The position numbers and the translations under genes were made by a program. Positions 3,484 through 23,790 of a DNA stretch of 23,790 bases are shown piece by piece. This stretch comes from a virus. Position 1 is the stretch's first letter, and every line of letters starts with the position of its first letter. The notes beneath the pieces are model-generated. The model was given only the letters and a program-made list of their open reading frames with translations. It did not search any database and was not told the DNA's origin. The stretch lies in UHGV virus genome UHGV-0045959, one strand, 5' to 3'.

Positions 3484-3755
3484 GTATTCGTATTGAAATT
3501 GGCGAACGTTATGTCGTTACCAGTGACAGCTTTCAGTTTATTCTCCACGAGAAAAAGAGAGCGGAAAGCGGTAAAAACGCCGGTCAGGAATGGCTGGCGG
3601 TGGTTGGTTATTACCCGAAATTAGGCCAGCTCGTTTCCGGCCTGATGCATCACGATATTCTGACCGGAAGCGCAAAATCTTTTGCTGATTTAAACGCGCA
3701 GGTTGAGCAACTCAGCAAGCGTTGTTCAGAGGCTTTTGGCTCATATGGCCGTTAA
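3480..3755 (+). CDS. hypothetical early protein (91 aa)
   Basis: ATGA overlap with the preceding ORF at 3480..3483; its 3' end overlaps the A start. Confidence 0.55.
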   Translation: MSIRIEIGERYVVTSDSFQFILHEKKRAESGKNAGQEWLAVVGYYPKLGQLVSGLMHHDILTGSAKSFADLNAQVEQLSKRCSEAFGSYGR

Positions 3756-6024: not shown

Positions 6025-6233
6025 TAAACATAATGTTTTAGATTGGTTGCATAATGGTAAGGTTGCTGTTTATCTGTATATGTTAATATGATTACGCTAC
6101 GTACAAACAATCGACATTTCTTTTTTTCTATATATTAATATTGATGATTTTACTGGTGGTACAATAAGTCTATGTTGAAATTCGAGAATTGTATTATTAA
6201 CAATAAAAACTGGTTCTTTTTATTATACAAGGA

Positions 6234-6315
6234 NNNNNNNNNNNNNNNNNNNNNNNNNNNNNNNNNNNNNNNNNNNNNNNNNNNNNNNNNNNNNNNNNNN
6301 NNNNNNNNNNNNNNN
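6234..6315. other. assembly gap (run of N) inside the A-cos cargo island
   Basis: 82 consecutive N; the stop codon of the 827-aa gene lies 11 nt to its right. Confidence 0.99.
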
Positions 6316-6326
6316 TCTTTTACTGT

Positions 6327-8810: not shown

Positions 8811-8870
8811 TTTTTATCCTCTTACAGGTACATTAGTTTAATTGTTAACGCAGAATTATCATTACCATAA

Positions 8871-8900
8871 CTTGCATTAAGTTGCATTACATTGCATTCA
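8871..8900. repeat. three tandem 10-bp repeats containing TTGCATT
   Basis: cTTGCATTaa / gTTGCATTac / aTTGCATTca at 8871..8900, 61-90 bp upstream of the 827-aa gene start and about 95 bp from cos. Confidence 0.6.
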
Positions 8901-8993
8901 TAAACGTTAGCTAGGGGCGAAGTCTGAGGTTTGATGGGCTATGGTGTCCCCTTTAATACGAGGTTGCATCAAAACCGCCCCATGAAGCGGGCG

Positions 8994-9012
8994 GGCGAGG
9001 CGGGGAAAGCAC
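8994..9012. other. cos: cos site (P2-type 19-nt cohesive-end sequence)
   Basis: GGCGAGGCGGGGAAAGCAC matches the P2 cohesive-end sequence as I recall it; located upstream of the Q/P packaging genes as in P2. Confidence 0.75.
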
Positions 9013-9154
9013 TGCGCGCTGGCGGTGGTGCTGATTTTATTTTTTCAGCGTCTCAGCGCGTCGTGACGGCGCTTAGTCTGTCCGTTGAGGCGTTGGTTTG
9101 CCTGCGGACTGTTTTGTGCGGTGGTGAGCGTGTGAGGGCGTGATGACGGGATGT

Positions 9155-9176
9155 AAAAAAGCCGCCCGCAGGCGGC
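9155..9176 (-). terminator. rho-independent terminator downstream of Q
   Basis: GC hairpin GCCGCC-cgca-GGCGGC (9161..9176) followed on the minus strand by a 6-nt T run (9155..9160), 6 nt past the Q stop. Confidence 0.65.
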
Positions 9177-9181
9177 GATGT

Positions 9182-10216
9182 TCAGCCGTTGTCAGTGTCC
9201 AGTGAGTAGTTTTTAAAGCGGATGACCTCCTGACCGAGCCAGCCGTTTATCTCGCGGATCCTGTCCTGTAGCGGGATAAGCTCATTGCGGACAAAGACCT
9301 TTGCCACTTTCTCAATATCTCCCAGTGACCCGACGTTCTCCGGCTTGCCGCCCATCAACTGAAAGGGGATGCGGTGCGCGTCCAGCAGGTCAGCGGCGCT
9401 GGCTTTTTTGATATTAAAAAAATCGTCCTTCGTTGCCACTTCACTGAGCGGGATAATTTTAATGCCGTCAGCTTTCCCCTGCGGGGCATAGAGAAACAGA
9501 TTTTTAAAGTTGTTGCGGCCTTTCGACTTAACCATGTTTTCGCGAAGCATTTCGATATCGTTGCGGTCCTGCACGGCATCGGTGACGTACATGATATATC
9601 CGGCATGAGCGCCGTTTTCGTAATACTTGCGGCGGAACAGCGTGGCTGACTCATTCAGCCAGGCAGAGTTAAGGGCGCTCAGATATTCTGGCAGGCCGTA
9701 CAGCTCCTGATTGATATCCGGCTCCAGCAGGTGAAACACGGAGCCGGGCGTGAAAGGTGTCGGCTCGTTGAAGGACGGCACCCACCAGTAAACATCCTCC
9801 TCCACGCCACGACGGGTATATTTTGCCGGTGAGGTTTCCAGTCTGATGACCTTACCGGTGGTGCTGTAACGCTTTTCCAGAAACGCATTACCGAACACCA
9901 GAAAATCCAGCACAAAGCGGCTGAAATCCTGCTGGGAAAGCCACGGATGCGGGATAAATGTTGAGGCCAGAATATTACGTTTGACGTAAATCGGTGAGCT
10001 GTGATGCACGGCAGCACGCAGGCTTTTTGCCAGACCGGTAAAGCTGACCGGTGGTTCATACCATCTGCCGTTACTGATGCACTCGACGTAATCCAGAATG
10101 TCACGGCGGTCGAGTACCGGTACCGGCTCGCCAAAGGTGAATGCTTCCATTTTCGGGGCGCTGGCGGTCATTTTTTTGGCCGCAGGTTGCGGTGTTTTCC
10201 CTTTTTTCTTGCTCAT
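9182..10216 (-). CDS. Q: portal protein (gpQ)
   Basis: 344 aa, identical in size to P2 gpQ; first gene clockwise of cos, co-oriented with the terminase; start overlaps the P stop by 1 nt. Confidence 0.9.
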   Translation of the reverse strand: MSKKKGKTPQPAAKKMTASAPKMEAFTFGEPVPVLDRRDILDYVECISNGRWYEPPVSFTGLAKSLRAAVHHSSPIYVKRNILASTFIPHPWLSQQDFSRFVLDFLVFGNAFLEKRYSTTGKVIRLETSPAKYTRRGVEEDVYWWVPSFNEPTPFTPGSVFHLLEPDINQELYGLPEYLSALNSAWLNESATLFRRKYYENGAHAGYIMYVTDAVQDRNDIEMLRENMVKSKGRNNFKNLFLYAPQGKADGIKIIPLSEVATKDDFFNIKKASAADLLDAHRIPFQLMGGKPENVGSLGDIEKVAKVFVRNELIPLQDRIREINGWLGQEVIRFKNYSLDTDNG

Positions 10217-11988
10217 CAGTAAAACTCCAGAATGGTGGATGTCAGCGGGGTGCTGATACCGGCGGTGAGTGGCTCATTTAACAGGGCGTGCATGGTCGCC
10301 CAGGCGAGGTCGGCGTGGCTGGCTTCCTCGCTGCGGCTGGCCTCATACGTGGCGCTGCGTCCGCTGCTGGTCATGGTCTTGCGGATAGCCATAAACGAGC
10401 TGGTGATGTCGGTGGCGCTGACGTCATATTCCAGACAGCCACGGCGGATGACGTCTTTTGCCTTGAGCACCATTGCGGTTTTCATTTCCGGTGTGTAGCG
10501 GATATCGCGCGCGGCGGGATAGAACGAGCGCACGAGCTGGAACACGCCGACACCGAGGCCGGTGGCATCAATACCGATGTATTCGACGTTGTATTTTTCG
10601 GTGAGTTTGCGGATGGATTCCGCCTGAGTGGCAAAGTCCATGCCTTTCCACTGGTGACGCTCAAGTATTCTGAATTTGCCACCGGCCACCACCGGCGGTG
10701 CCAGTACCACGCATCCGGCGCTGTCGCCACGGTGTGACGGGTCGTAACCAATCCATACCGGGCGGGAGCCGAACGGATTCGCGGCAAACGGCGCATAGTC
10801 TTCCCATTCTTCCAGCGTGTCGACCATGCAGCGTTGCAGCTCCTCGAACGGGAACACCGACGCCTTGTCGTCAACAAATTCACACATGAACAGGTTTTTA
10901 AAATCGTCGGCGCTGTTTTCACGTTTGAGCTGCTCAATGTCGAACAGCGTGCAGCCGCCTTTCAGCGCGTCCTCAATGGTGACAATCTGCCGCCACTGGC
11001 CGTCTGCACAGAGAAGCCCACCGGCAAGGGCGTTATGACTGACGTCGATTTCCACGCGTTCGGCGGCGCTGGCGCGTCCCCGGTTGAACAGTTCACCCGA
11101 CCAGAACGGGTAGGCGTCGTGCGCCAGCGTGGACGGGGTGGAGAAATAGGTCGAACGCAGGTGACTCTGTGAGGCCATACCTGATGCCACCTTACGCAGT
11201 ACCTGAAAATTCGGGATCCAGAAAATCTCGTCGACGTACAGGTCGCCGTTATGGCTCTGCGCGGTGTTGGAGTTGGTGCCGAGAAAAATCAGTTTTGCGC
11301 CGTTATTGCCCAGGACAATCGGGTCACCGGTCAGGTCAACGTCAACCAGCCGGGCAAAGGCGATGATGTATTCGCGGAACACATACGCCTGCGTTTTACT
11401 GGCCGACAGAAAAATCTGGTTATGACCGGTTTTCAGGGCGCGCAGCAGCGCCTCGCGGGAAAAATAAAACGTCGCGCCAATCTGGCGGGATTTCAGGATA
11501 TCGCGGATGCGGTGCTCAAGCCCGGCGCGATACCAGTGCAACTGATATTCGAAAGACTGCTCAAAGAAAATCTGCTCCAGCTTTTCGATGGCCTCGTCAC
11601 TGAAAAAATTCTTTTTCGGTTTGCGCCGCCCGCCTTTGTTGCGGTTAGCGACGTTCGGATTAAGGTCTGCCTCGTTGCCGGTCTGACTGTAACGGTTGAC
11701 CCGTGCCAGTCGTTCAATCTGGCGTCCCAGCAGGTCAATTTCCTTGAAGTCACCGCCGGTTTTCTGCGGTTTGATGATGAGCTGGGTCAGCCGCGCTTCC
11801 AGACTCATTTCGACACGGCTGATGGGGGCAACGCTGTCCCAGCCGTCGCGCTGTTTCCAGCTCTGCACCGTCGGGCGTTTCATCTGCAACATGGCGGCAA
11901 TCTGCGGCACGGAAAATCCCTGCCAGTACAGCAGCGCCGCCTGACGACGCGGGTCGTGTAAAAGAGTGGTGTCTGTGGTGATGGTCAT
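10216..11988 (-). CDS. P: terminase large subunit (gpP)
   Basis: ORF 10216..12018; likely start at MTITTDTTLL (11988), about 590 aa as in P2 gpP. Confidence 0.9.
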   Translation of the reverse strand: MTITTDTTLLHDPRRQAALLYWQGFSVPQIAAMLQMKRPTVQSWKQRDGWDSVAPISRVEMSLEARLTQLIIKPQKTGGDFKEIDLLGRQIERLARVNRYSQTGNEADLNPNVANRNKGGRRKPKKNFFSDEAIEKLEQIFFEQSFEYQLHWYRAGLEHRIRDILKSRQIGATFYFSREALLRALKTGHNQIFLSASKTQAYVFREYIIAFARLVDVDLTGDPIVLGNNGAKLIFLGTNSNTAQSHNGDLYVDEIFWIPNFQVLRKVASGMASQSHLRSTYFSTPSTLAHDAYPFWSGELFNRGRASAAERVEIDVSHNALAGGLLCADGQWRQIVTIEDALKGGCTLFDIEQLKRENSADDFKNLFMCEFVDDKASVFPFEELQRCMVDTLEEWEDYAPFAANPFGSRPVWIGYDPSHRGDSAGCVVLAPPVVAGGKFRILERHQWKGMDFATQAESIRKLTEKYNVEYIGIDATGLGVGVFQLVRSFYPAARDIRYTPEMKTAMVLKAKDVIRRGCLEYDVSATDITSSFMAIRKTMTSSGRSATYEASRSEEASHADLAWATMHALLNEPLTAGISTPLTSTILEFY

Positions 11989-12161
11989 GAATACCTCGCC
12001 GTGATGAATACACGGCAAGGCTACTGAGTCGCGCCCCGCGATTCGCTAAGGTGCTGTTGTGTCAGTGATAAGCCATCCGGGACTGATGGCGGAGGATGCG
12101 CATCGTCGGGAAACTGATGCCGACATGTGACTCCTCTAATCACTATTCAGGACTCCTGACA
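11989..12161. promoter_or_regulatory. divergent late-promoter region between P and O
   Basis: 173-bp intergenic region between divergently transcribed P and O, where P2 has its Ogr-dependent late promoters. Small inverted repeat CCGTG-n7-CACGG at 11999..12015. No consensus element confirmed. Confidence 0.4.
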
Positions 12162-13016
12162 ATGGCAAAAAAAGTCTCAAAATTCTTTCGTATCGGCGTT
12201 GAGGGTGACACCTGTGACGGGCGTGTCATCAGTGCGCAGGATATTCAGGAAATGGCCGAAACCTTTGACCCGCGTGTCTATGGTTGCCGCATTAACCTGG
12301 AACATCTGCGCGGCATCCTGCCTGACGGTATTTTTAAGCGTTATGGCGATGTGGCCGAACTGAAGGCCGAAAAGATTGACGACGATTCGGCGCTGAAAGG
12401 CAAATGGGCGCTGTTTGCGAAAATCACCCCGACCGATGACCTTATCGCGATGAACAAGGCCGCGCAGAAGGTCTACACCTCAATGGAAATTCAGCCGAAC
12501 TTTGCCAACACCGGCAAATGTTATCTGGTGGGGCTGGCCGTCACCGATGACCCGGCAAGCCTCGGCACGGAATACCTGGAATTCTGCCGCACGGCAAAAC
12601 ATAACCCTCTGAACCGCTTCAAATTAAGCCCTGAAAACCTGATTTCAGTGGCAACGCCTGTTGAGCTGGAATTTGAAGACCTGCCTGAAACCGTGTTCAC
12701 CGCCCTGACCGAAAAGGTGAAATCTATTTTTGGCCGCAAACAGGCCAGCGATGACGCCCGTCTGAATGACGTGCATGAAGCGGTGACCGCTGTTGCTGAA
12801 CATGTGCAGGAAAAACTGAGCGCCACTGAGCAGCGCCTCGCTGAGATGGAAACTGCCTTTTCCGCTCTTAAGCAGGAGGTGACTGACAGGGCGGATGAAA
12901 CCAGCCAGGCATTCACCAGCCTGAAAAACAGCCTCGACCACACCGAAAGTCTGACCCAGCAGCGCCGCAGCAAGGCCACCGGCGGTGGCGGTGACGCGCT
13001 GATGACGAACTGCTGA
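12162..13016 (+). CDS. O: capsid scaffolding protein (gpO)
   Basis: ORF 12096..13016; start at MAKKVSKFF (12162) gives 284 aa, the size of P2 gpO; coiled-coil-like acidic C-terminal half. Confidence 0.88.
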   Translation: MAKKVSKFFRIGVEGDTCDGRVISAQDIQEMAETFDPRVYGCRINLEHLRGILPDGIFKRYGDVAELKAEKIDDDSALKGKWALFAKITPTDDLIAMNKAAQKVYTSMEIQPNFANTGKCYLVGLAVTDDPASLGTEYLEFCRTAKHNPLNRFKLSPENLISVATPVELEFEDLPETVFTALTEKVKSIFGRKQASDDARLNDVHEAVTAVAEHVQEKLSATEQRLAEMETAFSALKQEVTDRADETSQAFTSLKNSLDHTESLTQQRRSKATGGGGDALMTNC

Positions 13017-13074
13017 CCGGCGTCAGTCAGTCCGGGAAAACCTTCACGATTAACCCTTAATTTCAGGAAAAACT

Positions 13075-14148
13075 ATGCGCCAGGAAACCCGCTTTAAATT
13101 TAATGCCTACCTGTCCCGTGTTGCCGAACTGAACGGCATCGACGCCGGTGATGTGTCGAAAAAATTCACCGTTGAACCGTCGGTCACCCAGACCCTGATG
13201 AACACCATGCAGGAGTCCTCTGACTTTCTGACCCGCATCAACATTGTGCCGGTCAGCGAAATGAAAGGGGAAAAAATTGGTATTGGTGTCACCGGCTCCA
13301 TCGCCAGCACCACCGACACCGCCGGTGGCACCGAGCGTCAGCCGAAGGACTTCTCGAAGCTGGCGTCAAACAAGTACGAATGCGACCAGATTAACTTCGA
13401 TTTTTATATCCGCTACAAAACGCTTGACCTGTGGGCGCGTTATCAGGATTTCCAGCTCCGTGTCCGTAACGCCATTATCAAACGTCAGGCTCTTGATTTA
13501 ATCATGGCCGGTTTTAACGGTGTGAAGCGTGCCGAAACCTCTGACCGCAGCAGTAACCCGATGCTGCAGGATGTGGCGGTCGGCTGGCTGCAGAAATACC
13601 GCAATGAAGCCCCGGCGCGCGTGATGAGTAAGGTCACTGACGAGGAAGGCCGCACCACCTCTGAGGTTATCCGCGTGGGTAAGGGCGGTGATTATGCCAG
13701 CCTTGATGCACTGGTGATGGATGCGACCAACAACCTGATTGAGCCGTGGTATCAGGAAGACCCTGACCTTGTGGTGATTGTGGGGCGTCAGTTACTGGCG
13801 GACAAGTATTTCCCCATCGTTAACAAGGAGCAGGACAACAGCGAAATGCTGGCCGCTGACGTCATCATCAGCCAGAAACGCATCGGTAACCTGCCAGCGG
13901 TACGCGTCCCGTACTTCCCGGCGGATGCGATGCTCATCACGAAGCTGGAAAACCTGTCCATCTACTACATGGATGACAGCCATCGCCGCGTGATTGTGGA
14001 AAACCCGAAACTCGACCGCGTGGAGAACTACGAGTCAATGAACATTGATTACGTGGTGGAAGACTACGCCGCCGGTTGTCTGGTGGAAAAAATTAAGGTC
14101 GGTGATTTCTCCACACCGGCTAAGGCGACCGCAGAGCCGGGAGCGTAA
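13075..14148 (+). CDS. N: major capsid protein (gpN)
   Basis: 357 aa, same size and position as P2 gpN, directly after the scaffold gene. Confidence 0.9.
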   Translation: MRQETRFKFNAYLSRVAELNGIDAGDVSKKFTVEPSVTQTLMNTMQESSDFLTRINIVPVSEMKGEKIGIGVTGSIASTTDTAGGTERQPKDFSKLASNKYECDQINFDFYIRYKTLDLWARYQDFQLRVRNAIIKRQALDLIMAGFNGVKRAETSDRSSNPMLQDVAVGWLQKYRNEAPARVMSKVTDEEGRTTSEVIRVGKGGDYASLDALVMDATNNLIEPWYQEDPDLVVIVGRQLLADKYFPIVNKEQDNSEMLAADVIISQKRIGNLPAVRVPYFPADAMLITKLENLSIYYMDDSHRRVIVENPKLDRVENYESMNIDYVVEDYAAGCLVEKIKVGDFSTPAKATAEPGA

Positions 14149-14151
14149 CCG

Positions 14152-14895
14152 ATGACGAGTCCCGCACAGCGCCACATGATGCGGGTCTCGGCAGCGATGA
14201 CCGCGCAGCGGGAAGCCGCCCCGCTGCGACATGCAACTGTCTATGAGCAGATGCTGGTTAAGCTCGCCGCAGATCAGCGCACACTGAAAGCGATTTATTC
14301 AAAAGAGCTGAAGGCCGCGAAAAAACGCGAACTGCTGCCGTTCTGGTTGCCGTGGGTGAACGGCGTGCTGGAGCAGGGCAAAGGTGCACAGGATGACATT
14401 CTGATGACGGTCATGCTGTGGCGTCTGGATACCGGCGATATTGCCGGTGCGCTGGAGATTGCCCGTTATGCCCTGAAGTACGGTCTGACCATGCCGGGTA
14501 AACACCGCCGCACTCCGCCGTACATGTTCACCGAGGAGGTGGCGCTTGCGGCCATACGCGCTCACGCTGCCGGTGAATCCGTGGATACCCGCCTGCTGAC
14601 GGAGACCCTTGAACTGACCGCCACGGCTGACATGCCTGATGAAGTGCGCGCAAAGCTGCACAAAATCACCGGTCTGTTTCTGCGTGACGGTGGTGATGCC
14701 GCCGGTGCGCTGGCTCACCTGCAACGTGCGACCCGGCTCGACTGTCAGGCAGGCGTCAAAAAAGAGATTGAACGACTGGAGCGGGAGCTGAAACCGAAGC
14801 CGGAGCAGCAACCCAAAGCGGCCACCCGTGCCACGCGTAAGACCCGGAGCGTGACACCGGCAAAACGTGGACGCCCGAAAAAGAAAGCCAGTTAA
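14152..14895 (+). CDS. M: terminase small (endonuclease) subunit (gpM)
   Basis: 247 aa, same size and position as P2 gpM; basic Lys/Arg-rich C-terminal tail. Confidence 0.88.
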   Translation: MTSPAQRHMMRVSAAMTAQREAAPLRHATVYEQMLVKLAADQRTLKAIYSKELKAAKKRELLPFWLPWVNGVLEQGKGAQDDILMTVMLWRLDTGDIAGALEIARYALKYGLTMPGKHRRTPPYMFTEEVALAAIRAHAAGESVDTRLLTETLELTATADMPDEVRAKLHKITGLFLRDGGDAAGALAHLQRATRLDCQAGVKKEIERLERELKPKPEQQPKAATRATRKTRSVTPAKRGRPKKKAS

Positions 14896-14994
14896 CAACC
14901 GAATGCGCCCCGCGCCAGGGCGGCACGCCGGTCAGTGAGGGTGAATCACCTGACACTGCACCGGCGTCCACCGCCCGACTTTTCAGAGGTAGTC

Positions 14995-15504
14995 ATGATG
15001 ACGCTGATTATTCCGCGAAAGGAGGCTCCCGTGTCCGGTGAGGGTACGGTGGTCATCCCGCAACCGGCAGGCGACGAGCCGGTGATTAAAAACACGTTCT
15101 TTTTTCCCGATATCGACCCGAAGCGCGTCCGGGAACGTATGCGCCTTGAGCAGACCGTCGCCCCCGCCCGTCTGCGTGAGGCCATCAAGTCAGGCATGGC
15201 TGAAACGAATGCGGAGCTGTACGAGTACCGTGAACAGAAAATTGCCGCCGGGTTTACGCGTCTGGCGGACGTCCCGGCGGACGATATCGACGGTGAAAGC
15301 ATCAAAGTTTTTTACTACGAGCGCGCCGTGTGTGCGATGGCGACCGCGTCGCTTTATGAGCGTTATCGCGGTGTGGATGCCAGTGCAAAAGGCGACAAGA
15401 AGGCCGACAGCATAGACAGCACTATTGATGAGCTGTGGCGGGATATGCGCTGGGCAGTGGCGCGTATCCAGGACAAGCCGCGCTGCATCGTGAGTCAAAT
15501 CTGA
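14995..15504 (+). CDS. L: head completion/stabilisation protein (gpL)
   Basis: ORF 14935..15504; start at MMTLIIPRKEAP (14995) gives 169 aa as in P2 gpL. Confidence 0.85.
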   Translation: MMTLIIPRKEAPVSGEGTVVIPQPAGDEPVIKNTFFFPDIDPKRVRERMRLEQTVAPARLREAIKSGMAETNAELYEYREQKIAAGFTRLADVPADDIDGESIKVFYYERAVCAMATASLYERYRGVDASAKGDKKADSIDSTIDELWRDMRWAVARIQDKPRCIVSQI

Positions 15505-15707
15505 TGAAGACCTTTGCGCTACAGGGCGACACGCTCGACGCCATTTGTGTCCGGTATTACGGGCGCACTGAGGGCGTGGTTGAGACCGTGCTCGCCGCAA
15601 ATTCGGGACTGGCTGAACTGGGTGCGGTGCTGCCACACGGCACCGCCGTCGAACTGCCCGACGTTCAGACCGCGCCCGTGGCTGAAACTGTCAATCTGTG
15701 GGAGTAA
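15504..15707 (+). CDS. X: tail protein X (gpX)
   Basis: ORF 15435..15707; ATG at 15504 overlapping the L stop gives 67 aa, MKTFALQGDTLDAICVRYYG. Confidence 0.85.
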   Translation: MKTFALQGDTLDAICVRYYGRTEGVVETVLAANSGLAELGAVLPHGTAVELPDVQTAPVAETVNLWE

Positions 15708-15710
15708 CGC

Positions 15711-15992
15711 ATGACAGCAGAAGAAAAAAGCGTCCTGTCGCTTTTCATGATTGGGGTGCTGATTGTTGTCGGCAAGGTGCTTGCCGGTGGTGAACCCATC
15801 ACCCCGCGTCTGTTTATCGGGCGCATGTTGCTCGGTGGTTTTGTCTCGATGGTTGCCGGTGTTGTTCTGGTGCAGTTTCCTGACCTGTCACTGCCTGCGG
15901 TGTGCGGCATCGGTTCCATGCTGGGTATCGCCGGTTATCAGGTGATTGAGATTGCCATTCAGCGTCGCTTTAAGGGCAGGGGGAAACCGTAA
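15711..15992 (+). CDS. Y: holin (gpY)
   Basis: 93 aa with hydrophobic transmembrane segments (VLSLFMIGVLIVVG, LLGGFVSMVAGVVLV) and a charged C-terminus; immediately precedes the endolysin. Confidence 0.88.
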   Translation: MTAEEKSVLSLFMIGVLIVVGKVLAGGEPITPRLFIGRMLLGGFVSMVAGVVLVQFPDLSLPAVCGIGSMLGIAGYQVIEIAIQRRFKGRGKP

Positions 15993-16489
15993 TGCCGGTT
16001 ATTAACACGCATCAGAATATCGCCGCCTTTCTCGACATGCTGGCCGTGTCCGAAGGGACGGCGAATCATCCGCTGACGAAAAACCGGGGCTATGACGTGA
16101 TAGTCACCGGACTGGACGGGAAGCCGGAAATTTTCACCGACTACAGTGACCACCCGTTCGCGCATGGCCGACCGGCGAAGGTGTTTAACCGTCGCGGTGA
16201 AAAGTCCACGGCCTCCGGTCGCTATCAGCAGCTTTACCTGTTCTGGCCGCACTACCGCAAACAGCTTGCCCTGCCGGATTTCAGTCCGTTGTCACAGGAC
16301 AGACTCGCCATTCAGTTGATCCGCGAACGCGGTGCACTGGATGACATCCGGGCGGGACGCATTGAGTGCGCCATTTCACGCTGTCGCAATATCTGGGCGT
16401 CCCTGCCGGGTGCCGGTTACGGTCAGCGTGAGCATTCACTGGAAAAACTGGTCACCGTCTGGCGTACCGCTGGCGGCGTACCGGCTTAA
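15992..16489 (+). CDS. K: endolysin / lysozyme (gpK)
   Basis: 165 aa, the size and position of P2 gpK in the lysis cassette; ATGA-type overlap with the holin. Confidence 0.88.
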   Translation: MPVINTHQNIAAFLDMLAVSEGTANHPLTKNRGYDVIVTGLDGKPEIFTDYSDHPFAHGRPAKVFNRRGEKSTASGRYQQLYLFWPHYRKQLALPDFSPLSQDRLAIQLIRERGALDDIRAGRIECAISRCRNIWASLPGAGYGQREHSLEKLVTVWRTAGGVPA

Positions 16490-16503
16490 ACGGAGTAAAC
16501 ACC

Positions 16504-16929
16504 ATGAAGAAATTATCCCTTTCACTGATGCTGAACGTGTCGCTGGCGCTGATGCTGGCACTGTCCCTGATTTACCCGCAGAGCGTGGCCGTCAGTTTTG
16601 TCGCTGCCTGGGCGATTCTGGCGATGATTATTTGTGTGGTTGCCGGTGGTGTCGGCGTGTATGCCACGGAGTATGTACTTGAACGCTACGGGCGGGAGCT
16701 GCCACCGGAATCGCTGGCCGTGAAGATTGTCACGTCGCTGTTTTTGCAGTCGGTGCCGTGGTGCAGACGGGCGGCGGCTCTGGTAGTGATGGTGGCGACG
16801 TTTATCTCGCTGGTTGCCGCCGGGTGGATTTTTACTGCGCTGATTTATCTCGTGGCGTCGCTGTTTTTCCGGCTGATACGCACGGCCTGCCGTCAGCGTC
16901 TTGAGGGGCGGGAACTATGTCAAAGCTGA
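16504..16929 (+). CDS. lysA: lysis regulatory membrane protein LysA
   Basis: 141 aa, strongly hydrophobic with multiple transmembrane-like segments, directly after K. Confidence 0.8.
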   Translation: MKKLSLSLMLNVSLALMLALSLIYPQSVAVSFVAAWAILAMIICVVAGGVGVYATEYVLERYGRELPPESLAVKIVTSLFLQSVPWCRRAAALVVMVATFISLVAAGWIFTALIYLVASLFFRLIRTACRQRLEGRELCQS

Positions 16930-17342
16930 TGATTGCACTGGTCGTGTTGTTATCGCTGGCGGTGGCGGGGCTGTTTCTGGTGAAGCATGAAAACGCCAGA
17001 CTGCGCTACTCGCTGGACAGGGCGAACAGCGTCGCCAGCGGGCAGCAGACGACCATCACCATGCTGAAAAATCAGCTTCATGTTGCCCTCACCAGGGCAG
17101 ACAAAAACGAGCTGGCGCAGGTGGCACTGCGTCAGGAACTGGAGAACGCCGCGAAGCGTGAAGCACAGCGCGAGAAAACCATCACGAGGTTACTGAATGA
17201 AAACGAAGATTTTCGCCGCTGGTACGGCGCTGGCCTGCCTGATGCTGTGCGCCGGTTGCACCAGCGCCCGGCCTGCGCCGACGCCAGTGATTGTCCACAA
17301 CGCCTGCCCGAAAGTGAGCCTTTGCCCGATGCCGGGCAGTGA
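16917..17342 (+). CDS. lysB: i-spanin (LysB, Rz-like)
   Basis: 141 aa; N-terminal transmembrane segment LMIALVVLLSLAVAGLFLV followed by a charged helical region; an embedded out-of-frame ORF follows. Confidence 0.82.
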   Translation: MSKLMIALVVLLSLAVAGLFLVKHENARLRYSLDRANSVASGQQTTITMLKNQLHVALTRADKNELAQVALRQELENAAKREAQREKTITRLLNENEDFRRWYGAGLPDAVRRLHQRPACADASDCPQRLPESEPLPDAGQ

Positions 17343-17487
17343 CCCGGAGACGAACGGCGATTTAAGTGCTGATATCCGGCAGCTTGAGAACGCGCTGGCA
17401 CGCTGTGCCAGCCAGGTAAAAATGATTAAACACTGTCAGGACGAAAACGATGCTCAAACCCGACAGCCTGCGCAGGGCGCTGACTGA
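17197..17487 (+). CDS. lysC: o-spanin lipoprotein (LysC, Rz1-like), embedded in and extending beyond lysB
   Basis: 96 aa starting inside lysB in a different frame; N-terminus MKTKIFAAGTALACLMLCAGCTS looks like a signal peptide with lipobox-like cysteines; Pro-rich mature part. Confidence 0.78.
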   Translation: MKTKIFAAGTALACLMLCAGCTSARPAPTPVIVHNACPKVSLCPMPGSDPETNGDLSADIRQLENALARCASQVKMIKHCQDENDAQTRQPAQGAD

Positions 17488-17917
17488 TGCCGTCACGGTG
17501 CTGAAAACTAACCCCGATATGCTGCGGATATTCGTGGATAACGGGAGTATTGCCTCCACACTGGCGACGTCGCTGTCATTCGAAAAGCGTTACACGCTCA
17601 ATGTGATTGTGACCGACTTTACCGGTGATTTTGACCTGCTCATTGTGCCGGTGCTGGCGTGGCTGCGGGAAAATCAGTCCGACATCATGACCACCGACGA
17701 AGGCCAGAAAAAGGGCTTCACGTTTTATGCAGACATCAACAATGACAGCAGCTTTGATATCAGCATCAGCCTGATGCTGACCGAGCGCACGCTGGTCAGT
17801 GAGGTGGACGGCGCACTGCATGTGAAGAATATCCCGGAACCCCCGCCGCCGGAGCCGGTTACCCGCCCGATGGAGCTGTATATCAATGGCGAACTGGTGA
17901 GCAAGTGGGATGAATGA
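17450..17917 (+). CDS. R: tail completion protein (gpR)
   Basis: 155 aa, the size and position of P2 gpR. Confidence 0.85.
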   Translation: MLKPDSLRRALTDAVTVLKTNPDMLRIFVDNGSIASTLATSLSFEKRYTLNVIVTDFTGDFDLLIVPVLAWLRENQSDIMTTDEGQKKGFTFYADINNDSSFDISISLMLTERTLVSEVDGALHVKNIPEPPPPEPVTRPMELYINGELVSKWDE

Positions 17918-18362
17918 GTTTAAGCGTTTTGAAGACCGGCTGGCCGGACTGACTGAATCGCTGTCACCGTCAGGGCGTCGGCGGCTGAGTGCCGAACTGG
18001 CGAAACGTCTGCGGCAGAGTCAGCAGCGTCGGGTGATGGCACAGAAAGCCCCGGACGGCACACCCTACGTGCCACGCCAGCAGCAGAGCGCCAGAAAAAA
18101 GACTGGTCGTGTTAAGCGAAAAATGTTTGCGAAACTTATCACCAATCGTTTTTTGCATATCCGCGCCAGCCCGGAGCAGGCATCAATGGAATTTTACGGC
18201 GGAAAGTCACCGAAAATCGCCAGTGTGCATCAGTTTGGTCTGTCGGAAGAAACCCGGAAAGACGGTAAGAAAATTGATTATCCGGCGCGTCCCCTGCTCG
18301 GCTTTACCGGTGAGGATGTGCAGATGATTGAAGAGATTATCCTGGCTCACCTCGACCGTTAG
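17910..18362 (+). CDS. S: tail completion protein (gpS)
   Basis: 150 aa, the size and position of P2 gpS; overlaps the R stop. Confidence 0.85.
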   Translation: MNEFKRFEDRLAGLTESLSPSGRRRLSAELAKRLRQSQQRRVMAQKAPDGTPYVPRQQQSARKKTGRVKRKMFAKLITNRFLHIRASPEQASMEFYGGKSPKIASVHQFGLSEETRKDGKKIDYPARPLLGFTGEDVQMIEEIILAHLDR

Positions 18363-18428
18363 TTGTGCCATTCCTGACACCTCATCGTCACATTGCCGCC
18401 GGTATGACCCGGCGGCATCCTTCCCGTT

Positions 18429-19064
18429 ATGAACACTCTCGCAAATATTCAGGAACTCGCGCGCGCACTGCGCAACATGATCCGCACCGGCATTATCGTC
18501 GAAACCGACCTTAATGCCGGTCGCTGCCGTGTGCAGACCGGCGGCATGTGCACCGACTGGCTTCAGTGGCTGACCTGTCGTGCCGGGCGTTCGCGCACAT
18601 GGTGGGCACCTTCCGTGGGGGAACAGGTGCTGATTCTGGCCGTGGGTGGTGAACTCGACACGGCGTTCGTTCTGCCGGGGATTTATTCCGGCGATAGCCC
18701 CGCGCCGTCTGCGTCGGCGGATGCCCTGCATATCCGTTTCCCTGACGGGGCGGTGATTGAGTATGAACCCGAAACTAGTGCACTCACGGTAAGCGGAATT
18801 AAAACGGCCAGCGTGACGGCTTCTGATTCTGTTACTGCCAGGGTGCCTGTGGTCATGGTGAAAGCATCAACCCGCGTCACCCTGGACACACCGGAGGTGG
18901 TCTGCACCAACAAGCTGATCACCGGCACGCTGGAAGTGCAGAAGGGCGGGACGATGCGCGGCAACATTGAACACACCGGCGGTGAACTCTCATCAAACGG
19001 TAAGGTACTGCATACCCATAAACACCCAGGAGACAGCGGCGGCACAACCGGGAGTCCTCTATGA
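18429..19064 (+). CDS. V: baseplate spike protein (gpV)
   Basis: 211 aa, the size and position of P2 gpV. Confidence 0.88.
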   Translation: MNTLANIQELARALRNMIRTGIIVETDLNAGRCRVQTGGMCTDWLQWLTCRAGRSRTWWAPSVGEQVLILAVGGELDTAFVLPGIYSGDSPAPSASADALHIRFPDGAVIEYEPETSALTVSGIKTASVTASDSVTARVPVVMVKASTRVTLDTPEVVCTNKLITGTLEVQKGGTMRGNIEHTGGELSSNGKVLHTHKHPGDSGGTTGSPL

Positions 19065-19408
19065 CAGCACGTTATCTCGGAATGAATCGCAGTGATGGCC
19101 TGACTGTCACTGACCTTGAGCATATCAGCCAGAGTATCGGCGATATCCTGCGCACACCGGTCGGCTCACGGGTGATGCGTCGTGATTACGGCTCGTTGCT
19201 GGCATCAATGATTGACCAGCCGCAGACCCCGGCGCTTGAGTTGCAGATTAAGGTCGCCTGTTACATGGCGGTGCTGAAATGGGAACCCCGCGTCACCCTG
19301 TCATCTGTCACCACTGAGCGCAGTTTTGAGGGGCGAATGACGGTCACGTTAACCGGTCAGCACAACGACACCGGCCAGCCACTTTCGTTAACCATCCCTG
19401 TGAGTTGA
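19061..19408 (+). CDS. W: baseplate wedge protein (gpW, gp25-like)
   Basis: 115 aa, ATGA-coupled to V; size and position of P2 gpW. Confidence 0.88.
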   Translation: MTARYLGMNRSDGLTVTDLEHISQSIGDILRTPVGSRVMRRDYGSLLASMIDQPQTPALELQIKVACYMAVLKWEPRVTLSSVTTERSFEGRMTVTLTGQHNDTGQPLSLTIPVS

Positions 19409-19412
19409 AACC

Positions 19413-20321
19413 ATGCCGATTATCGACCTGAACCAGCTACCCGCACCGGATGTGGTCGAGGAGCTGGACTTTGAAACCATTCTTGCCGAACGCAAGGCGA
19501 CACTGATTTCCCTTTACCCGGAAGACCAGCAGGAGGCGGTCGCCCGTACCCTGACGCTGGAATCTGAGCCTCTCGTCAAACTGCTGGAGGAAAATGCTTA
19601 TCGTGAGCTTATCTGGCGTCAGCGTGTGAATGAGGCCGCACGGGCGGTGATGCTGGCCTGTGCAGCCGGTAATGACCTTGATGTGATTGGTGCCAATTAC
19701 AACACCACACGCCTGACTATCACCCCGGCAGATGATTCGACCATCCCGCCGACACCGGCAGTGATGGAGTCTGACACCGATTATCGTCTGCGTATTCAGC
19801 AGTCATTTGAGGGCTTAAGCGTCGCCGGGTCGGTGGGAGCCTATCAGTATCATGGTCGCAGTGCCGACGGGCGTGTCGCGGATATCTCTGTCACCAGTCC
19901 GTCTCCGGCCTGCGTCACCATCTCCGTGCTGTCACGTGAAAATAACGGTGTCGCATCCGAAGACCTGCTGGCCGTGGTGCGTAACGCCCTGAATGGCGAG
20001 GACGTCAGACCGGTGGCCGACCGCGTGACCGTGCAGTCCGCCGCCATCGTTGAATACCAGATAAACGCCACGCTTTACCTTTACCCTGGTCCCGAAAGCG
20101 AACCCATTCGCGCTGCCGCCGTGAAAAAACTGGAAGCGTATATCACGGCACAGCACCGGCTGGGGCGCGACATCCGTCTGTCTGCCATTTATGCCGCTTT
20201 GCATGTGGAAGGCGTGCAGCGTGTCGAGCTGGCCGCACCACTGGCCGACATTGTGCTCAACAGTACGCAGGCGTCTTTCTGCACCGAATACAGCGTCGTG
20301 ACCGGAGGCTCGGATGAGTGA
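19413..20321 (+). CDS. J: baseplate protein (gpJ)
   Basis: 302 aa, the size and position of P2 gpJ. Confidence 0.88.
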   Translation: MPIIDLNQLPAPDVVEELDFETILAERKATLISLYPEDQQEAVARTLTLESEPLVKLLEENAYRELIWRQRVNEAARAVMLACAAGNDLDVIGANYNTTRLTITPADDSTIPPTPAVMESDTDYRLRIQQSFEGLSVAGSVGAYQYHGRSADGRVADISVTSPSPACVTISVLSRENNGVASEDLLAVVRNALNGEDVRPVADRVTVQSAAIVEYQINATLYLYPGPESEPIRAAAVKKLEAYITAQHRLGRDIRLSAIYAALHVEGVQRVELAAPLADIVLNSTQASFCTEYSVVTGGSDE

Positions 20322-20925
20322 TTCGCGCCTGCTGCCGACCGGCTCATCACCGCTTGAAGTTGCCGCCGCAAAAGCCTGTGCGGAAATTGAAAAAACGCCG
20401 GTCAGTATTCGTGAACTGTGGAACCCGGATACCTGTCCGGCAAATCTGCTGTCGTGGCTGGCGTGGTCATTTTCGGTTGACCGCTGGGATGATAAGTGGC
20501 CGGAAGCGACAAAACGCGCTGTTATCCGCGATGCGTATTTCATTCACTGCCATAAGGGCACTATAGGCGCAATCCGGCGTGTGGTGGAGCCGCTCGGCTA
20601 TCTGATTGAGGTGAGGGAGTGGTGGCAGCTCAACGAGGAACCGGGGACGTTCCGCATCGTTGTTGGCGTGCTTGAGCAGGGTATTACCGAGGAAATGTAT
20701 CAGGAGCTGGAGCGTCTCGTTGCTGATGCAAAACCTGCAAGCCGCCATCTGACGGGACTGGCTATCAGTTTAAGTACAACCGGCAACATTTTTGCCGGTG
20801 CGGGATGCTATCACGGCGACGCCCTGACGGTTTATCCCTACACCCCGGAGGCCATTATTGTCGGAGGGGATTATTTCCCGGCCTCGGCCATTCATTTAAT
20901 TGATAACCTGAGAGTAAACGCATGA
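20314..20925 (+). CDS. I: baseplate / tail-fibre attachment protein (gpI-like)
   Basis: 203 aa between J and the tail-fibre gene, overlapping both neighbours; somewhat longer than the P2 gpI size I recall. Confidence 0.8.
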   Translation: MSDSRLLPTGSSPLEVAAAKACAEIEKTPVSIRELWNPDTCPANLLSWLAWSFSVDRWDDKWPEATKRAVIRDAYFIHCHKGTIGAIRRVVEPLGYLIEVREWWQLNEEPGTFRIVVGVLEQGITEEMYQELERLVADAKPASRHLTGLAISLSTTGNIFAGAGCYHGDALTVYPYTPEAIIVGGDYFPASAIHLIDNLRVNA

Positions 20926-22217
20926 CAGTGAAATACTACGCCATTCTGACTAATCAGGGCGCAGCACGGCTGGCTAACGCGACGATGCTTGGCAGTAAGC
21001 TGAATCTGACGCAAATGGCCGTTGGTGATGCGAATGGTGTCTTGCCGACACCAGACCCGGCACAGACAAAACTGATTAATCAGAAACGCATTGCACCGCT
21101 GAATCTTCTGAGTGTTGACCCGAACAACCAGAGCCAGATTATTGCGGAGCAAATCATCCCTGAGAACGAGGGCGGATTCTGGATCCGTGAGATTGGGCTT
21201 TATGATGATGAAGGCGTACTCATTGCGGTGGCCAACTGCCCGGAAACGTACAAACCGCAGTTACAGGAAGGCAGTGGTCGTACCCAGACTATCCGCATGA
21301 TTCTGGTTGTCACGAATATCGAAGCCATCACGCTGAAAATCGACCCGTCGGTGGTACTGGCGACCCGTAAATATGTGGATGATGAAGTCCTGGAATTAAG
21401 GCTGTATGTGGATGACCAGATGAGAAACCACATTGCCGCACAGGATCCTCATACCCAGTATGCACAGAAACATAATCCGACATTTACCGGAGAACCAAAA
21501 GCCCCGACGCCTGCCGCAGGAAATAACACCACGCGGATTGCGACCACTGAGTTTGTTCAGGCCGCTATTACCGCTCTGATTAACGGCGCGCCAGCCACGC
21601 TGGACACACTGAAAGAAATTGCCGCAGCCATTAACAATGACCCGAAATTCAGCACCACTATTAACAATGCGCTGTCAGGTAAGCAGCCACTGGATGAGAC
21701 GCTGACTCATTTGAGCGGAAAGGATGTTGCCGGCCTTCTCGCATACCTTGGTTTGGGAGAAACGATAAATAGAGCCTCCAGAGCTATGCAGAAATCGGCT
21801 AATGGATCTGATATTTCTGATGTATCAGCCTTCCGAAATGCGCTCCAGTTAGGGACCGCTGCAACACGAGATGTTGGAGCAGATAATGCCTCGAAGTTAC
21901 TGGATTTAGACAGCTTCAGGTCAATGATGTCAGGTAATGGCTACATCTACATTCCATGCATTGCGACGACAGGAAACCCGGTGAAACTTATGTTGCAGTG
22001 GGGAACGGTGGCAACACAAAAGGGAGCTGATGCTGGATATGCCTTACCATTTGCTTTTCCCTATGCAGGCTTGTTTGCGACCGGAAACCGTGGAACATCT
22101 GGCTACAATGCCGCGATGAATGTGCGTATTGCCAGCAGAACGCATATCAGTATTCAGAACTGGTCGCCATCCGGAGAGGGCACCGAAGATTGTTGTTTTA
22201 TCGCGCTGGGGTATTAA
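20922..22217 (+). CDS. H: tail fibre protein (gpH-like): constant N-terminal part plus currently expressed variable C-terminal tip
   Basis: 431 aa with a conserved phage tail-fibre N-terminus (MTVKYYAILTNQGAARLANA...FWIREIGLYDDEGVLIAVAN); the C-terminal 150 aa lie inside the invertible segment. Shorter than P2 gpH. Confidence 0.88.
   Translation: MTVKYYAILTNQGAARLANATMLGSKLNLTQMAVGDANGVLPTPDPAQTKLINQKRIAPLNLLSVDPNNQSQIIAEQIIPENEGGFWIREIGLYDDEGVLIAVANCPETYKPQLQEGSGRTQTIRMILVVTNIEAITLKIDPSVVLATRKYVDDEVLELRLYVDDQMRNHIAAQDPHTQYAQKHNPTFTGEPKAPTPAAGNNTTRIATTEFVQAAITALINGAPATLDTLKEIAAAINNDPKFSTTINNALSGKQPLDETLTHLSGKDVAGLLAYLGLGETINRASRAMQKSANGSDISDVSAFRNALQLGTAATRDVGADNASKLLDLDSFRSMMSGNGYIYIPCIATTGNPVKLMLQWGTVATQKGADAGYALPFAFPYAGLFATGNRGTSGYNAAMNVRIASRTHISIQNWSPSGEGTEDCCFIALGY
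21736..21761. other. left recombination (crossover) site of the invertible tail-fibre segment (gix/cix/hix-like)
   Basis: 26-bp TTCTCGCATACC-TT-GGTTTGGGAGAA with imperfect dyad symmetry; its reverse complement matches the first 14 bp of the right site and 20 of 26 positions of the hix-type consensus as I recall it. Lies inside H at codons 272-280 (LLAYLGLGE). Confidence 0.7.
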
Positions 22218-22219
22218 GA

Positions 22220-22636
22220 ATGAATAAATTTTATAAAGGCTCTTTCTATCCGAAAGCACTAAAAGAGGTATATATCAGCGCCGGTTCATGGCCTGAAAAT
22301 GGCGTTGATGTTGATGATGAAACAATAGCAATTTACACAGGCGTAGCGCCAGAAGGCAAAACGCTGGGGGCTGATAAAAATGGTAATCCTGCATGGATTG
22401 ATATCCCGCCACTCTCCGCTGAACAACAGATTATTCAGGCTGAACAGAAAAGAACGGTATTGCGTTCAATGGCTGATAAGGAAATAGTCTGGAGACAGGA
22501 TGCTTTTGATGCGGAAATCGCGACGGCAGAAGAAACCGCCGCGTTGTCTGAATGGAAAAAATATCGGGTCTTACTGATGCGCGTTGATACATCAAATCCC
22601 GTCTGGCCTACGCCTCCGGGGGAGCAGGCCAATTGA
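22220..22636 (+). CDS. G: tail fibre assembly chaperone (gpG/Tfa-like) for the expressed fibre tip
   Basis: ORF 22190..22636; ATG at 22220 (MNKFYKGSFYP), 3 nt after the H stop. C-terminus VDTSNPVWPTPPGEQAN is the conserved Tfa C-terminal motif. Confidence 0.8.
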   Translation: MNKFYKGSFYPKALKEVYISAGSWPENGVDVDDETIAIYTGVAPEGKTLGADKNGNPAWIDIPPLSAEQQIIQAEQKRTVLRSMADKEIVWRQDAFDAEIATAEETAALSEWKKYRVLLMRVDTSNPVWPTPPGEQAN

Positions 22637-23228
22637 TATCCGGCGCGGTGCTGGTATCAGTTACCGTCACCGCGTCAATGTAATCCAGCACGACGTTAAG
22701 CCGGGTGGTTTCTGTCTGCGTCAGTTTTCGCCCGGCCTGCAATTTCAGTTGAATCAGATTAATGGAAGCCATTGCAGTATCAATCAGTGACTGTCGCTGT
22801 GTTTCTGCCGCGCCTACTGCGGCGCTATGCTGTGCCTCAGTATCTGTCACCCATTTCTCACCATCCCATTCATCGTATGGCGTTAACGGGGCGACAGTGG
22901 TTGTGTTTTCAGGGTAATCCCCCGGAGTGGTGATTTCTGCTGCCTCACGGGTTTCTGTGTTATAGACTGTCTCACCCCGATGGTCCGGCACGTACTCCCA
23001 CGCGGTCAGGTCGGCTGTGCGGCAAATTGCATAACCAGCCCGCCTTTCCCCGGGGGCATCAGTGCATGAATGTGCAGGAAGGCCAACGCCCACAGCCAGA
23101 TATTCGGTTGACGTGCAAAGGTATTCCCGCGTCTTATTATCGTAGCTGTGGACAACAACCTCTCCTGCAACTGTTGCCAGCCGCGATTCATTCAGCACCG
23201 CTGTAGTCATGGTTTTCTTGCTCATCAT
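22608..23228 (-). CDS. alternative tail fibre assembly chaperone (Tfa') serving the silent fibre tip
   Basis: 206 aa on the minus strand; C-terminus VTDTSTAPDINWPAPPEA parallels the C-terminus of the plus-strand Tfa; its 3' end overlaps that gene by 29 bp. Confidence 0.78.
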   Translation of the reverse strand: MMSKKTMTTAVLNESRLATVAGEVVVHSYDNKTREYLCTSTEYLAVGVGLPAHSCTDAPGERRAGYAICRTADLTAWEYVPDHRGETVYNTETREAAEITTPGDYPENTTTVAPLTPYDEWDGEKWVTDTEAQHSAAVGAAETQRQSLIDTAMASINLIQLKLQAGRKLTQTETTRLNVVLDYIDAVTVTDTSTAPDINWPAPPEA

Positions 23229-23740
23229 GCAGCCCTTACGATGTAGTTAAATGCAATGTTACGTGGCCTTGCATAACCCAGATACTGAATCCCCCAGGCT
23301 CCCACTGGAACGGGGTTCCAGATATGTTCTGTAGGTATACTTTTCGCTCTGAGAATATCTGAATTGGTTTCAGTTTTATCCCATCCCAGCAGGGCAATGT
23401 CGTTTACCGAAAACTGCACCACGCTGTCGGGTGATATATTGGCTTCCTGAACCAGATAAGAGCCTTTTTGCCACGACAACAACGTCCGGCTACTGTCCAC
23501 TCCGCGCCCGTCATCCCAGCCACGAATAAATTCACCACGTAAATCAGGCAATATATTTGTCGGGTAAGCCTTTGCCAGTTCCGGGTATTCTTCAGCAGAA
23601 AATGCCGCCCCGTTGCATTTCAGCCAGCCTGTTGGCAGTGTGGCTGAAGGCCACGGAACAGGCACACCAACGGGTAATACAGAGCCTTCTCCCAAACCAA
23701 CGTTTATGAAAATGCAGAGATAACGGGCAAGTGGCATCAT
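23225..23740 (-). CDS. alternative tail-fibre C-terminal cassette (Sv'-like), silent in this orientation
   Basis: 171-aa ORF containing a phage tail-collar-like motif LPDLRGEFIRGWDDGRG. Residues 14-18 VGLGE are encoded by the right crossover site and match the LGLGE junction in H. Only sequence downstream of the crossover would be fused to H after inversion. Confidence 0.75.
   Translation of the reverse strand: MMPLARYLCIFINVGLGEGSVLPVGVPVPWPSATLPTGWLKCNGAAFSAEEYPELAKAYPTNILPDLRGEFIRGWDDGRGVDSSRTLLSWQKGSYLVQEANISPDSVVQFSVNDIALLGWDKTETNSDILRAKSIPTEHIWNPVPVGAWGIQYLGYARPRNIAFNYIVRAA
23687..23712. other. right recombination (crossover) site of the invertible segment
   Basis: TTCTCCCAAACC-AA-CGTTTATGAAAA; first 14 bp identical to the reverse complement of the left site, central AA dinucleotide matching. 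Confidence 0.7.
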
Positions 23741-23767
23741 CTCCGGTTTTTATTCAGGGGGATGCTC

Positions 23768-23790
23768 ATGCTTATTGGCTATGTACGCGT
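23768..23790 (+). CDS. serine DNA invertase (Gin/Cin/Hin/Pin family), 5' fragment truncated by window end
   Basis: ATG at 23768 followed by codons for MLIGYVRV, the characteristic N-terminus of Gin/Cin/Hin-type invertases (catalytic Ser expected at the next codon); directly adjacent to the right crossover site. Confidence 0.65.

Follow-up and report, generated by a model that had tools for sequence, protein, structure and literature searches.

The Start of a Gin/Pin-Type DNA Invertase Gene beside the Tail-Fibre Switch of a P2-Like Prophage, and Its Probable Disruption by ISEc22

Introduction

In the inversion systems of the phages Mu (invertase Gin, G segment) and P1 (invertase Cin, C segment), the invertase gene is located next to the segment, immediately beyond one of its crossover sites, and holds an enhancer inside its 5′ coding region. 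This recombinational enhancer is about 65 bp long, with a Fis site at each end (PMC3798978), a Fis site being a G/C dyad around a 13-bp core (PMC7166090). As for the enzyme itself, Ser9 links Gin to DNA, and Gin without Ser9 is inactive (PMC3575834). In E. coli K-12, the P segment of e14 and its invertase PinE show the order stf, tfa, tfa′, stf′, invertase, and the inverted repeats of e14 are given in the same study (PMC12529663). Finally, the P2-like Escherichia phages pro483 and S164, the Salmonella phage MET_P1_103_31 and Fels-2 (invertase Fin) have an intact invertase gene after their tail-fibre genes.

Here, we analyse a stretch of 23,790 nt (virus genome UHGV-0045959), hereafter the window, the end of which is the true start of a Gin/Pin-type serine DNA invertase gene (Din family: Gin/Cin/Pin/Hin). 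The closest described system is e14, with which it shares 88% identity over the rebuilt invertase protein (see below), a nearly identical right crossover site, almost the same distance between this site and the invertase ATG (54 nt from the pix site to the pinE ATG vs. 55 nt in the window), the order of the genes and a conserved 5′ coding region including GT(G/A)TCAACAAATGAC. It differs from e14 in that the host of the switch is a P2-like prophage, where it is located after genes H/G and before the tail sheath gene, in that the variable parts of the tail fibres are others, and in that the invertase gene is most probably split by ISEc22 in the lineage of the window. Mu Gin and P1 Cin are about 80–81% identical to the rebuilt protein and have in common with it Ser9, the HTH_7 domain and the placement of gene and putative enhancer, whereas the host phages and the contents of the segments are different, the segments being 3 kb and 4.2 kb long vs. 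1.95 kb in the window, and cin precedes its segment. The P2-like phages agree with the window in the position of the gene. Their invertible segments are not the same throughout (at 92% identity, pro483 matches the 2.9-kb tail region over 58% of its length), and their genes are intact, whereas that of the lineage of the window most probably is not. As to ISEc22, a member of the IS66 family, the element found beyond the window is ordinary, save that it has landed in the first of the putative Fis cores in the invertase enhancer.

Both the invertase and its IS-split allele are elements of a known kind and are already present in public genomes: the intact protein is in RefSeq (WP_010835463.1), and the IS-split allele occurs in 81 complete genomes. 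The gene start opens a textbook phage host-range switch and matters little beyond correct annotation; inversions that followed the insertion in a few IS-bearing genomes leave a small unexplained residue.

Results and Discussion

The Window Ends in the Start of an Invertase Gene

Positions 23768–23790 read ATG CTT ATT GGC TAT GTA CGC GT, i.e., M L I G Y V R followed by GT, which stands for Val8 whatever the third base, GTN always being Val. The window covers 7 2/3 codons of the gene, and the codon of Ser9 lies just beyond its end. Two features are found here:

23756..23762, + strand: Shine-Dalgarno-like AGGGGGA, 5 nt before the ATG (read from the sequence, putative in function)
23768..23790, + strand: 5′ end of a Din-family serine invertase gene, codons 1–7 (MLIGYVR) and the GT of Val8 (from the reading itself and from the extensions in the loci L001, L002 and IMG/VR)

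The letters directly before the ATG are ...AGGGGGATGCTC; a promoter scan of 23400–23790 returned no sigma-70-like site on the + strand for the invertase, but it is too crude to conclude from. The 41-mer 23750–23790 has exact matches in 38 stretches of IMG/VR contigs, most of which open an ORF of 188–197 aa beginning MLIGYVRVSTNDQN, and the ORF is intact in about 34 of them. In the exact-match extensions, MLIGYVRV is followed by STNDQN and the sequence goes on as an invertase, as the first-pass annotation had proposed when it read the last 23 nt as the N-terminus of a serine invertase.

When the insertion sequence described below and one copy of its target duplication are removed, the gene encodes a protein of 196 aa. 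This rebuilt protein carries the Pfam domains Resolvase (3e-52) and HTH_7 (5e-13) and matches the Gin structures 3UJ3 and 4M6F over residues 1–182 with an E-value of about 1e-94 (7e-95), Ser9 being conserved; the nucleophilic serine of the resolvase/invertase catalytic domain is found in the motif GYVRVS (Ser9 in Gin). Its identity to the invertases of the P2-like phages MET_P1_103_31, S164 and pro483 reaches 96–99%, vs. 86% for Fels-2. In strain 600055, the same gene exists uninterrupted (797/797 nt, protein WP_010835463.1), and HTH_7 is found on this intact allele as on the rebuilt protein; the 81 IS-bearing genomes encode this domain at a distance of 2.5 kb from the stub with the catalytic serine. 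Along with the identity to PinE, these domain and structure matches uphold the assignment to the serine invertases, and the catalytic serine and C-terminal HTH for which a check had been advised are both in the rebuilt protein.

An Invertible Tail-Fibre Segment between Two Crossover Sites

Upstream of the invertase gene, the inverted-repeat search gave one pair bracketing the tail-fibre genes, 21733–21761 and 23687–23715 (29 nt), which was trimmed to 26 bp. The resulting layout is as follows:

20922..22217, + strand: tail-fibre gene H in its present orientation, 431 aa (Pfam Phage_tail_fib and Gp53-like_C; RefSeq annotation)
21736..21761, unstranded: left crossover site, within tail-fibre gene H, TTCTCGCATACC TT GGTTTGGGAGAA, inverted partner of the right site
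21748..23700, unstranded: invertible tail-fibre segment, 1,953 bp with both core dinucleotides included
22190..22636, + strand: tail-fibre assembly gene (chaperone), variant 1 (Pfam Caudo_TAP; annotated as 22220–22636 in RefSeq)
22608..23228, − strand: tail-fibre assembly gene (chaperone), variant 2, silent in the present orientation (Pfam Caudo_TAP)
23225..23740, − strand: alternative C-terminal tail-fibre segment, variant 2 (Pfam Collar)
23687..23712, unstranded: right crossover site, pix-type, TTCTCCCAAACC AA CGTTTATGAAAA, at least 34 nt identical to the e14 site by pinE

The two 26-bp sites have identical inner half-sites and the same central dinucleotide (TT/AA), and they flank the segment in inverted orientation. 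The invertase gene begins just outside the right one, its ATG lying 55 nt beyond 23687–23712, in agreement with the position that the gene had been given at first. Gene H consists of a constant N-terminal part, up to the left crossover site, and of variable C-terminus 1, while the variant 2 fibre segment possesses neither an N-terminal part nor a promoter and becomes fused to H through inversion only. When 21748–23700 is flipped in silico, the constant part of H is fused in frame to the alternative C-terminus, yielding an H protein of 433 aa. Both orientations, each with a complete tail-fibre gene, are present at 100% identity in sequenced genomes, the flipped form being that of EJN001 and EBJ001. 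This is the classic design of the G, C and P segments. The intact 196-aa enzyme would bind both crossover sites (21736–21761 and 23687–23712) and, with Fis on the enhancer in its own 5′ coding region, would invert the 1.95-kb segment, thereby swapping the C-terminus of the tail-fibre protein H along with the matching assembly chaperone.

ISEc22 Splits the Gene in Near-Identical Genomes

The locus of E. coli 4/2-1 (L001) differs from the window by one mismatch in 10,891 nt. There, the ORF goes on with GTG TCA ACA AAT, immediately followed by GTAAGCGTCGTC, which is the left end of an insertion sequence located between nt 33 and 34 of the invertase gene, i.e., 11 bases past the end of the window. 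The element and the two alternative continuations of the window are:

L001 10902–13356: ISEc22, IS66 family, 2,455 bp (RefSeq name; tnpA, tnpB, transposase)
past 23790, IS-split state: GTCAACAAAT then GTAAGCGTCGTC
past 23790, intact state: ...GTGTCAACAAATGACCAGAAC... / GTCAACAAATGACCAGAAC, into the 196-aa ORF

The insertion has an 8-bp target duplication, CAACAAAT, and GTAAGCG terminal repeats, both ends of the element beginning GTAAGCGT; its right end, ...GCACGCTTAC, is followed by CAACAAAT GAC CAG AAC..., i.e., the second copy of the duplication and the remainder of the invertase. Its products belong to the Pfam families HTH_Tnp_1, TnpB_IS66 and DDE_Tnp_IS66, as expected for the IS66 family. 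In the annotations of 4/2-1, CFS3273 and EJN001, the transposase gene (L001 11780–13319) is frameshifted, whereas two other assemblies have an intact product of 511 aa (e.g., L005 3527–5062); the frameshift might be genuine or might reflect a homopolymer sequencing error.

What is left of the invertase upstream of the IS is an N-terminal stub of 22 codons, which reads MLIGYVRVSTNVSVVSAPSGRS up to a stop at codon 23 inside ISEc22 and carries Tyr6, Arg8 and Ser9, the other 185 codons being 2.5 kb downstream. On the 3′ side of the IS, a stop codon is followed by HIPVNTVLAARLP-TNDQNTELQ..., with no ATG, GTG or TTG before the invertase residues resume. The insertion leaves a short stub and a remainder deprived of a canonical start codon, and the split gene is presumably inactive. 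RefSeq nevertheless annotates a 200-aa "recombinase family protein" at L001 13323–13925 (WP_062914736.1), which starts at an ATC within the right IS end and is not flagged as a pseudogene. Because this protein is devoid of residues 1–9, including Tyr6, Arg8 and Ser9, it is better treated as a pseudogene fragment.

The Insertion Falls within the Putative Enhancer

The first-pass annotation had expected a recombinational enhancer in the 5′ coding region of the invertase, and homology agrees with this expectation. The RefSeq record of P1 has an "enhancer of Cin-mediated C-segment inversion" at nt 19–90 of cin. Over this stretch, cin, gin, pinE and the gene of the window align without gaps, and all of them keep GT(G/A)TCAACAAATGA. 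Near the ends of the stretch, the only 15-mers of the form G-N13-C are nt 22–36 (GTGTCAACAAATGAC) and nt 71–85 (GCGCAGGATGTGAGC), which we take as putative Fis cores, their arrangement being consistent with the published enhancer of roughly 65 bp that has Fis sites at both ends; their exact limits rest on the P1 enhancer feature, the G-N13-C rule and the description of the enhancer as a 65-bp element. Consequently, the window holds only the beginning of these features:

23786..23790, unstranded: first 5 nt of the stretch homologous to the P1 cin enhancer (gene nt 19–23; putative, by alignment)
23789–23790, unstranded: first 2 nt of the putative Fis core GTGTCAACAAATGAC (gene nt 22–36; G-N13-C 15-mer)

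The two putative cores are 49 bp apart as measured from centre to centre, and since the Fis sites of hin are spaced by 48 bp, the register of the cores may be off by one. With its site between nt 33 and 34, ISEc22 is inside the first putative core and splits it in such a way that the left copy becomes GTGTCAACAAATGTA, losing the 3′ C, and the right copy becomes TTACCAACAAATGAC, losing the 5′ G. Hence, the insertion probably harms not only the enzyme but also the cis-acting enhancer.

Which Allele the Source of the Window Carries

Since the window ends before the junction, ISEc22 is not read in its source but deduced from relatives. With megablast, the last 2.9 kb of the window match many complete E. 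coli chromosomes at 100% identity, and the junction between the invertase and ISEc22 occurs in 81 complete genomes. Complete E. coli genomes sharing the tail-fibre region of the window at 100% identity and in the same orientation number 51; using the 2.9-kb tail region extended by 209 nt of the IS as a query, and requiring 100% coverage and identity, we found this junction in all 51 of them. None of these 51 genomes has an uninterrupted ORF of about 185–200 aa, which is found only in relatives at 99.7–99.9% identity, the best IS-free genomes being 600055 (99.8%) and CUVET16-819 (99.7%), along with 720632, in which the gene is intact as well (99.9%, flipped). Similarly, among the 38 IMG/VR stretches with the 41-mer, the sole contig with an upstream part equal to that of the window (3000/3000 nt) shows the IS junction. 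The neighbouring 171-aa protein adjoins the IS in four of the five contexts shown, the fifth being a truncated prophage without invertase. Among the genomes examined, none is identical to the window; CFS3273, the closest one without ISEc12, differs from the window by two indels; like the window it lacks ISEc12, yet it still has the ISEc22 insertion.

At face value, the 23 nt visible in the window might seem too few to tell a gene start from a chance short ORF or from the start of an unrelated protein. However, dozens of contigs have exactly the same 41-nt context where their invertase ORFs begin, the placement of these 23 nt relative to the crossover site is that of pinE, and invertase sequence follows in every extension examined, so that the probability of such a coincidence is negligible and this reading is effectively refuted. 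The integrity of the gene calls for more discussion. If the source carried the allele preceding the insertion, its invertase would be intact and working, and the segment would switch autonomously, as in Mu, P1, e14 and pro483. Indeed, 600055 has a 100% identical uninterrupted gene (797/797 nt), CUVET16-819 and 720632 have intact genes too, as do about 34 of the 38 IMG/VR stretches with the 41-mer, and the window is free of the ISEc12 of most IS-bearing relatives, which may indicate a less decayed copy. Because it matches no examined genome exactly and is devoid of ISEc12, the window could stem from an earlier branch predating ISEc22. Yet the prophages with an intact gene are not that of the window, 600055 being 97.9% identical over 8965–23790 and having phosphatase and kinase genes as cargo instead of a helicase, whereas all 51 genomes equal to the window over its last 2.9 kb (100% identity), CFS3273 included, have the IS. 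We thus regard an intact allele as unlikely. Judging from the sequences of its relatives, the source of the window very probably carries the split gene, and the best explanation as a whole, which we hold with high confidence, is the start of a Gin/Pin-type gene, the enzyme of the switch having been lost to ISEc22 in the lineage of the window. In other words, the tail-fibre switch of this lineage would most probably have lost its own enzyme through the insertion.

This leads us to revise the initial interpretation in part. We retain the family, the location of the gene just beyond the right crossover site and a putative enhancer within the 5′ coding region, the last 5 nt of the window corresponding to positions 19–23 of the P1 cin feature (nt 19–90). 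In contrast, the integrity of the gene is not, ISEc22 following nt 33: the intact ORF of roughly 190 aa expected downstream is probably absent in this lineage, for all 51 identical genomes have a stop at codon 23. A stop within the first 50 codons, which the first-pass annotation had named as evidence against its reading, is thus what the IS-bearing genomes display.

Inversion of the Segment after the Insertion

When the flipped segment joined to the IS junction was used as a query, EJN001 and EBJ001 matched it at 100% over 3,100 nt. The locus of EJN001 (L012, NZ_CP086338.1 13083–24182) equals the flipped window over 6891/6891 nt, and its stub, IS and invertase remainder show 0 mismatches in 3,132 nt when compared to those of 4/2-1. 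A third genome, 11899A_LBHALD, is flipped as well, but its match goes only about 130 nt into the left end of the IS, and neither IS66 genes nor an invertase remainder are annotated downstream. Altogether, flipped genomes number about 3 vs. 51 in the orientation of the window. As a single insertion event is found in both orientations, the segment must have inverted after the insertion of ISEc22.

How a switch deprived of its enzyme could still invert is a matter of refining the explanation given above rather than of replacing the identity of the gene. The segment may not be frozen, and a recombinase acting in trans, either of the Din family or of the PinQ/PinR type, brought by another prophage or by a phage-plasmid, might occasionally invert it at its unchanged pix-type sites. 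Besides the flipped state of EJN001 and EBJ001, which have the same IS, and that of 11899A_LBHALD, this idea draws on the match between the crossover sites and those of e14, on a P1-like plasmid with related tail-fibre DNA in one IS-bearing strain (H284), and on the documented action in trans of Din-family enzymes: PinE, PinQ and PinR all invert the e14 segment, while the Salmonella H segment is a target of Fels-2 Fin and Mu G one of PinE (PMC12529663). Nonetheless, EJN001 shows no donor enzyme, the putative enhancer on which any Fis-dependent enzyme would rely is itself split by the IS, and flipped genomes are rare, so that we consider the arguments for and against an action in trans to be evenly balanced.

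In the chromosome of EJN001, blastn finds only two invertase-like places, i.e., the split gene and a pinH-like fragment of 168 nt by ypjA. The sites of e14 (icd), Rac (ttcA) and Qin (ydfJ/rspB) are all empty, the lambdoid prophage at potB/potC has no recombinase, and the single plasmid encodes only a resolvase, 24% identical. A transient P1-like phage-plasmid, a divergent chromosomal recombinase or an event independent of any invertase are all possible sources of the flip. Homologous recombination between long inverted repeats was also considered and rejected, the only repeat spanning the segment being the 29-nt crossover pair. Taken literally, these observations would mean that a switch devoid of its own invertase, and probably of its enhancer, inverted at least once in EJN001 and EBJ001 with no recognisable Gin/Pin-type invertase in either of them, a claim that we view with strong scepticism. 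Were it true, either an unrecognised recombinase would act on pix-type sites without the native enhancer, or repeats of 14–26 bp would invert without an invertase.

A P2-Like Prophage in Decay

The window corresponds to a P2-like prophage adjoining cpxP, with an ORF map that reads int, C/Cox, A, a cargo gene, Q P O N M L X, the lysis genes and R S V W J I H G. When this map is combined with the RefSeq annotation of genomes that are 100% or 99.98% identical, the P2 gene order is recovered throughout (int, C/cox, A, cargo, Q–X, lysis, R–G, then sheath, tube, tape measure, D and ogr). In CFS3273, the prophage starts at the first base after the cpxP CDS, which corresponds to position 1 of the window. 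With ISEc22 in the invertase gene, ISEc12 in gene A of most relatives and deletion variants, this prophage is in decay, so that its own enzyme is unlikely to drive the tail-fibre switch.

The IS21-family element ISEc12 interrupts gene A, the replication endonuclease gene (3703–6024), at about 5036/5037 of the window in most near-identical prophages; it is absent from the window and from CFS3273. In the deletion variants (L049 and L005), ISEc12 is joined directly to position 23647 of the window, 5037–23646 being gone, including the left crossover site. A further copy of the tail-fibre region (L008, CP028310.1 1128202–1140717) belongs to a prophage that ends directly after the 171-aa alternative fibre segment; beyond it come two ORFs without Pfam hit and then host genes (csgG side), with neither invertase nor IS. 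Two stretches distinguish the window from CFS3273, namely an excess of about 60 nt directly behind the cpxP stop (within 1–114) and 82 nt instead of 19 between gene A and the helicase gene (6234–6315).

This helicase gene (6327–8810, − strand) is found where P2 phages have their cargo, after gene A and before the portal gene, and it encodes a DEAD/DEAH-type protein of 827 aa with the Pfam domains ResIII, DEAD and Helicase_C_2, the full length of which matches PDC-S28, a candidate defence family of PADLOC (1054 bits). At the same cargo position, the prophage of strain 600055 has a PP2C phosphatase and two Ser/Thr kinases.
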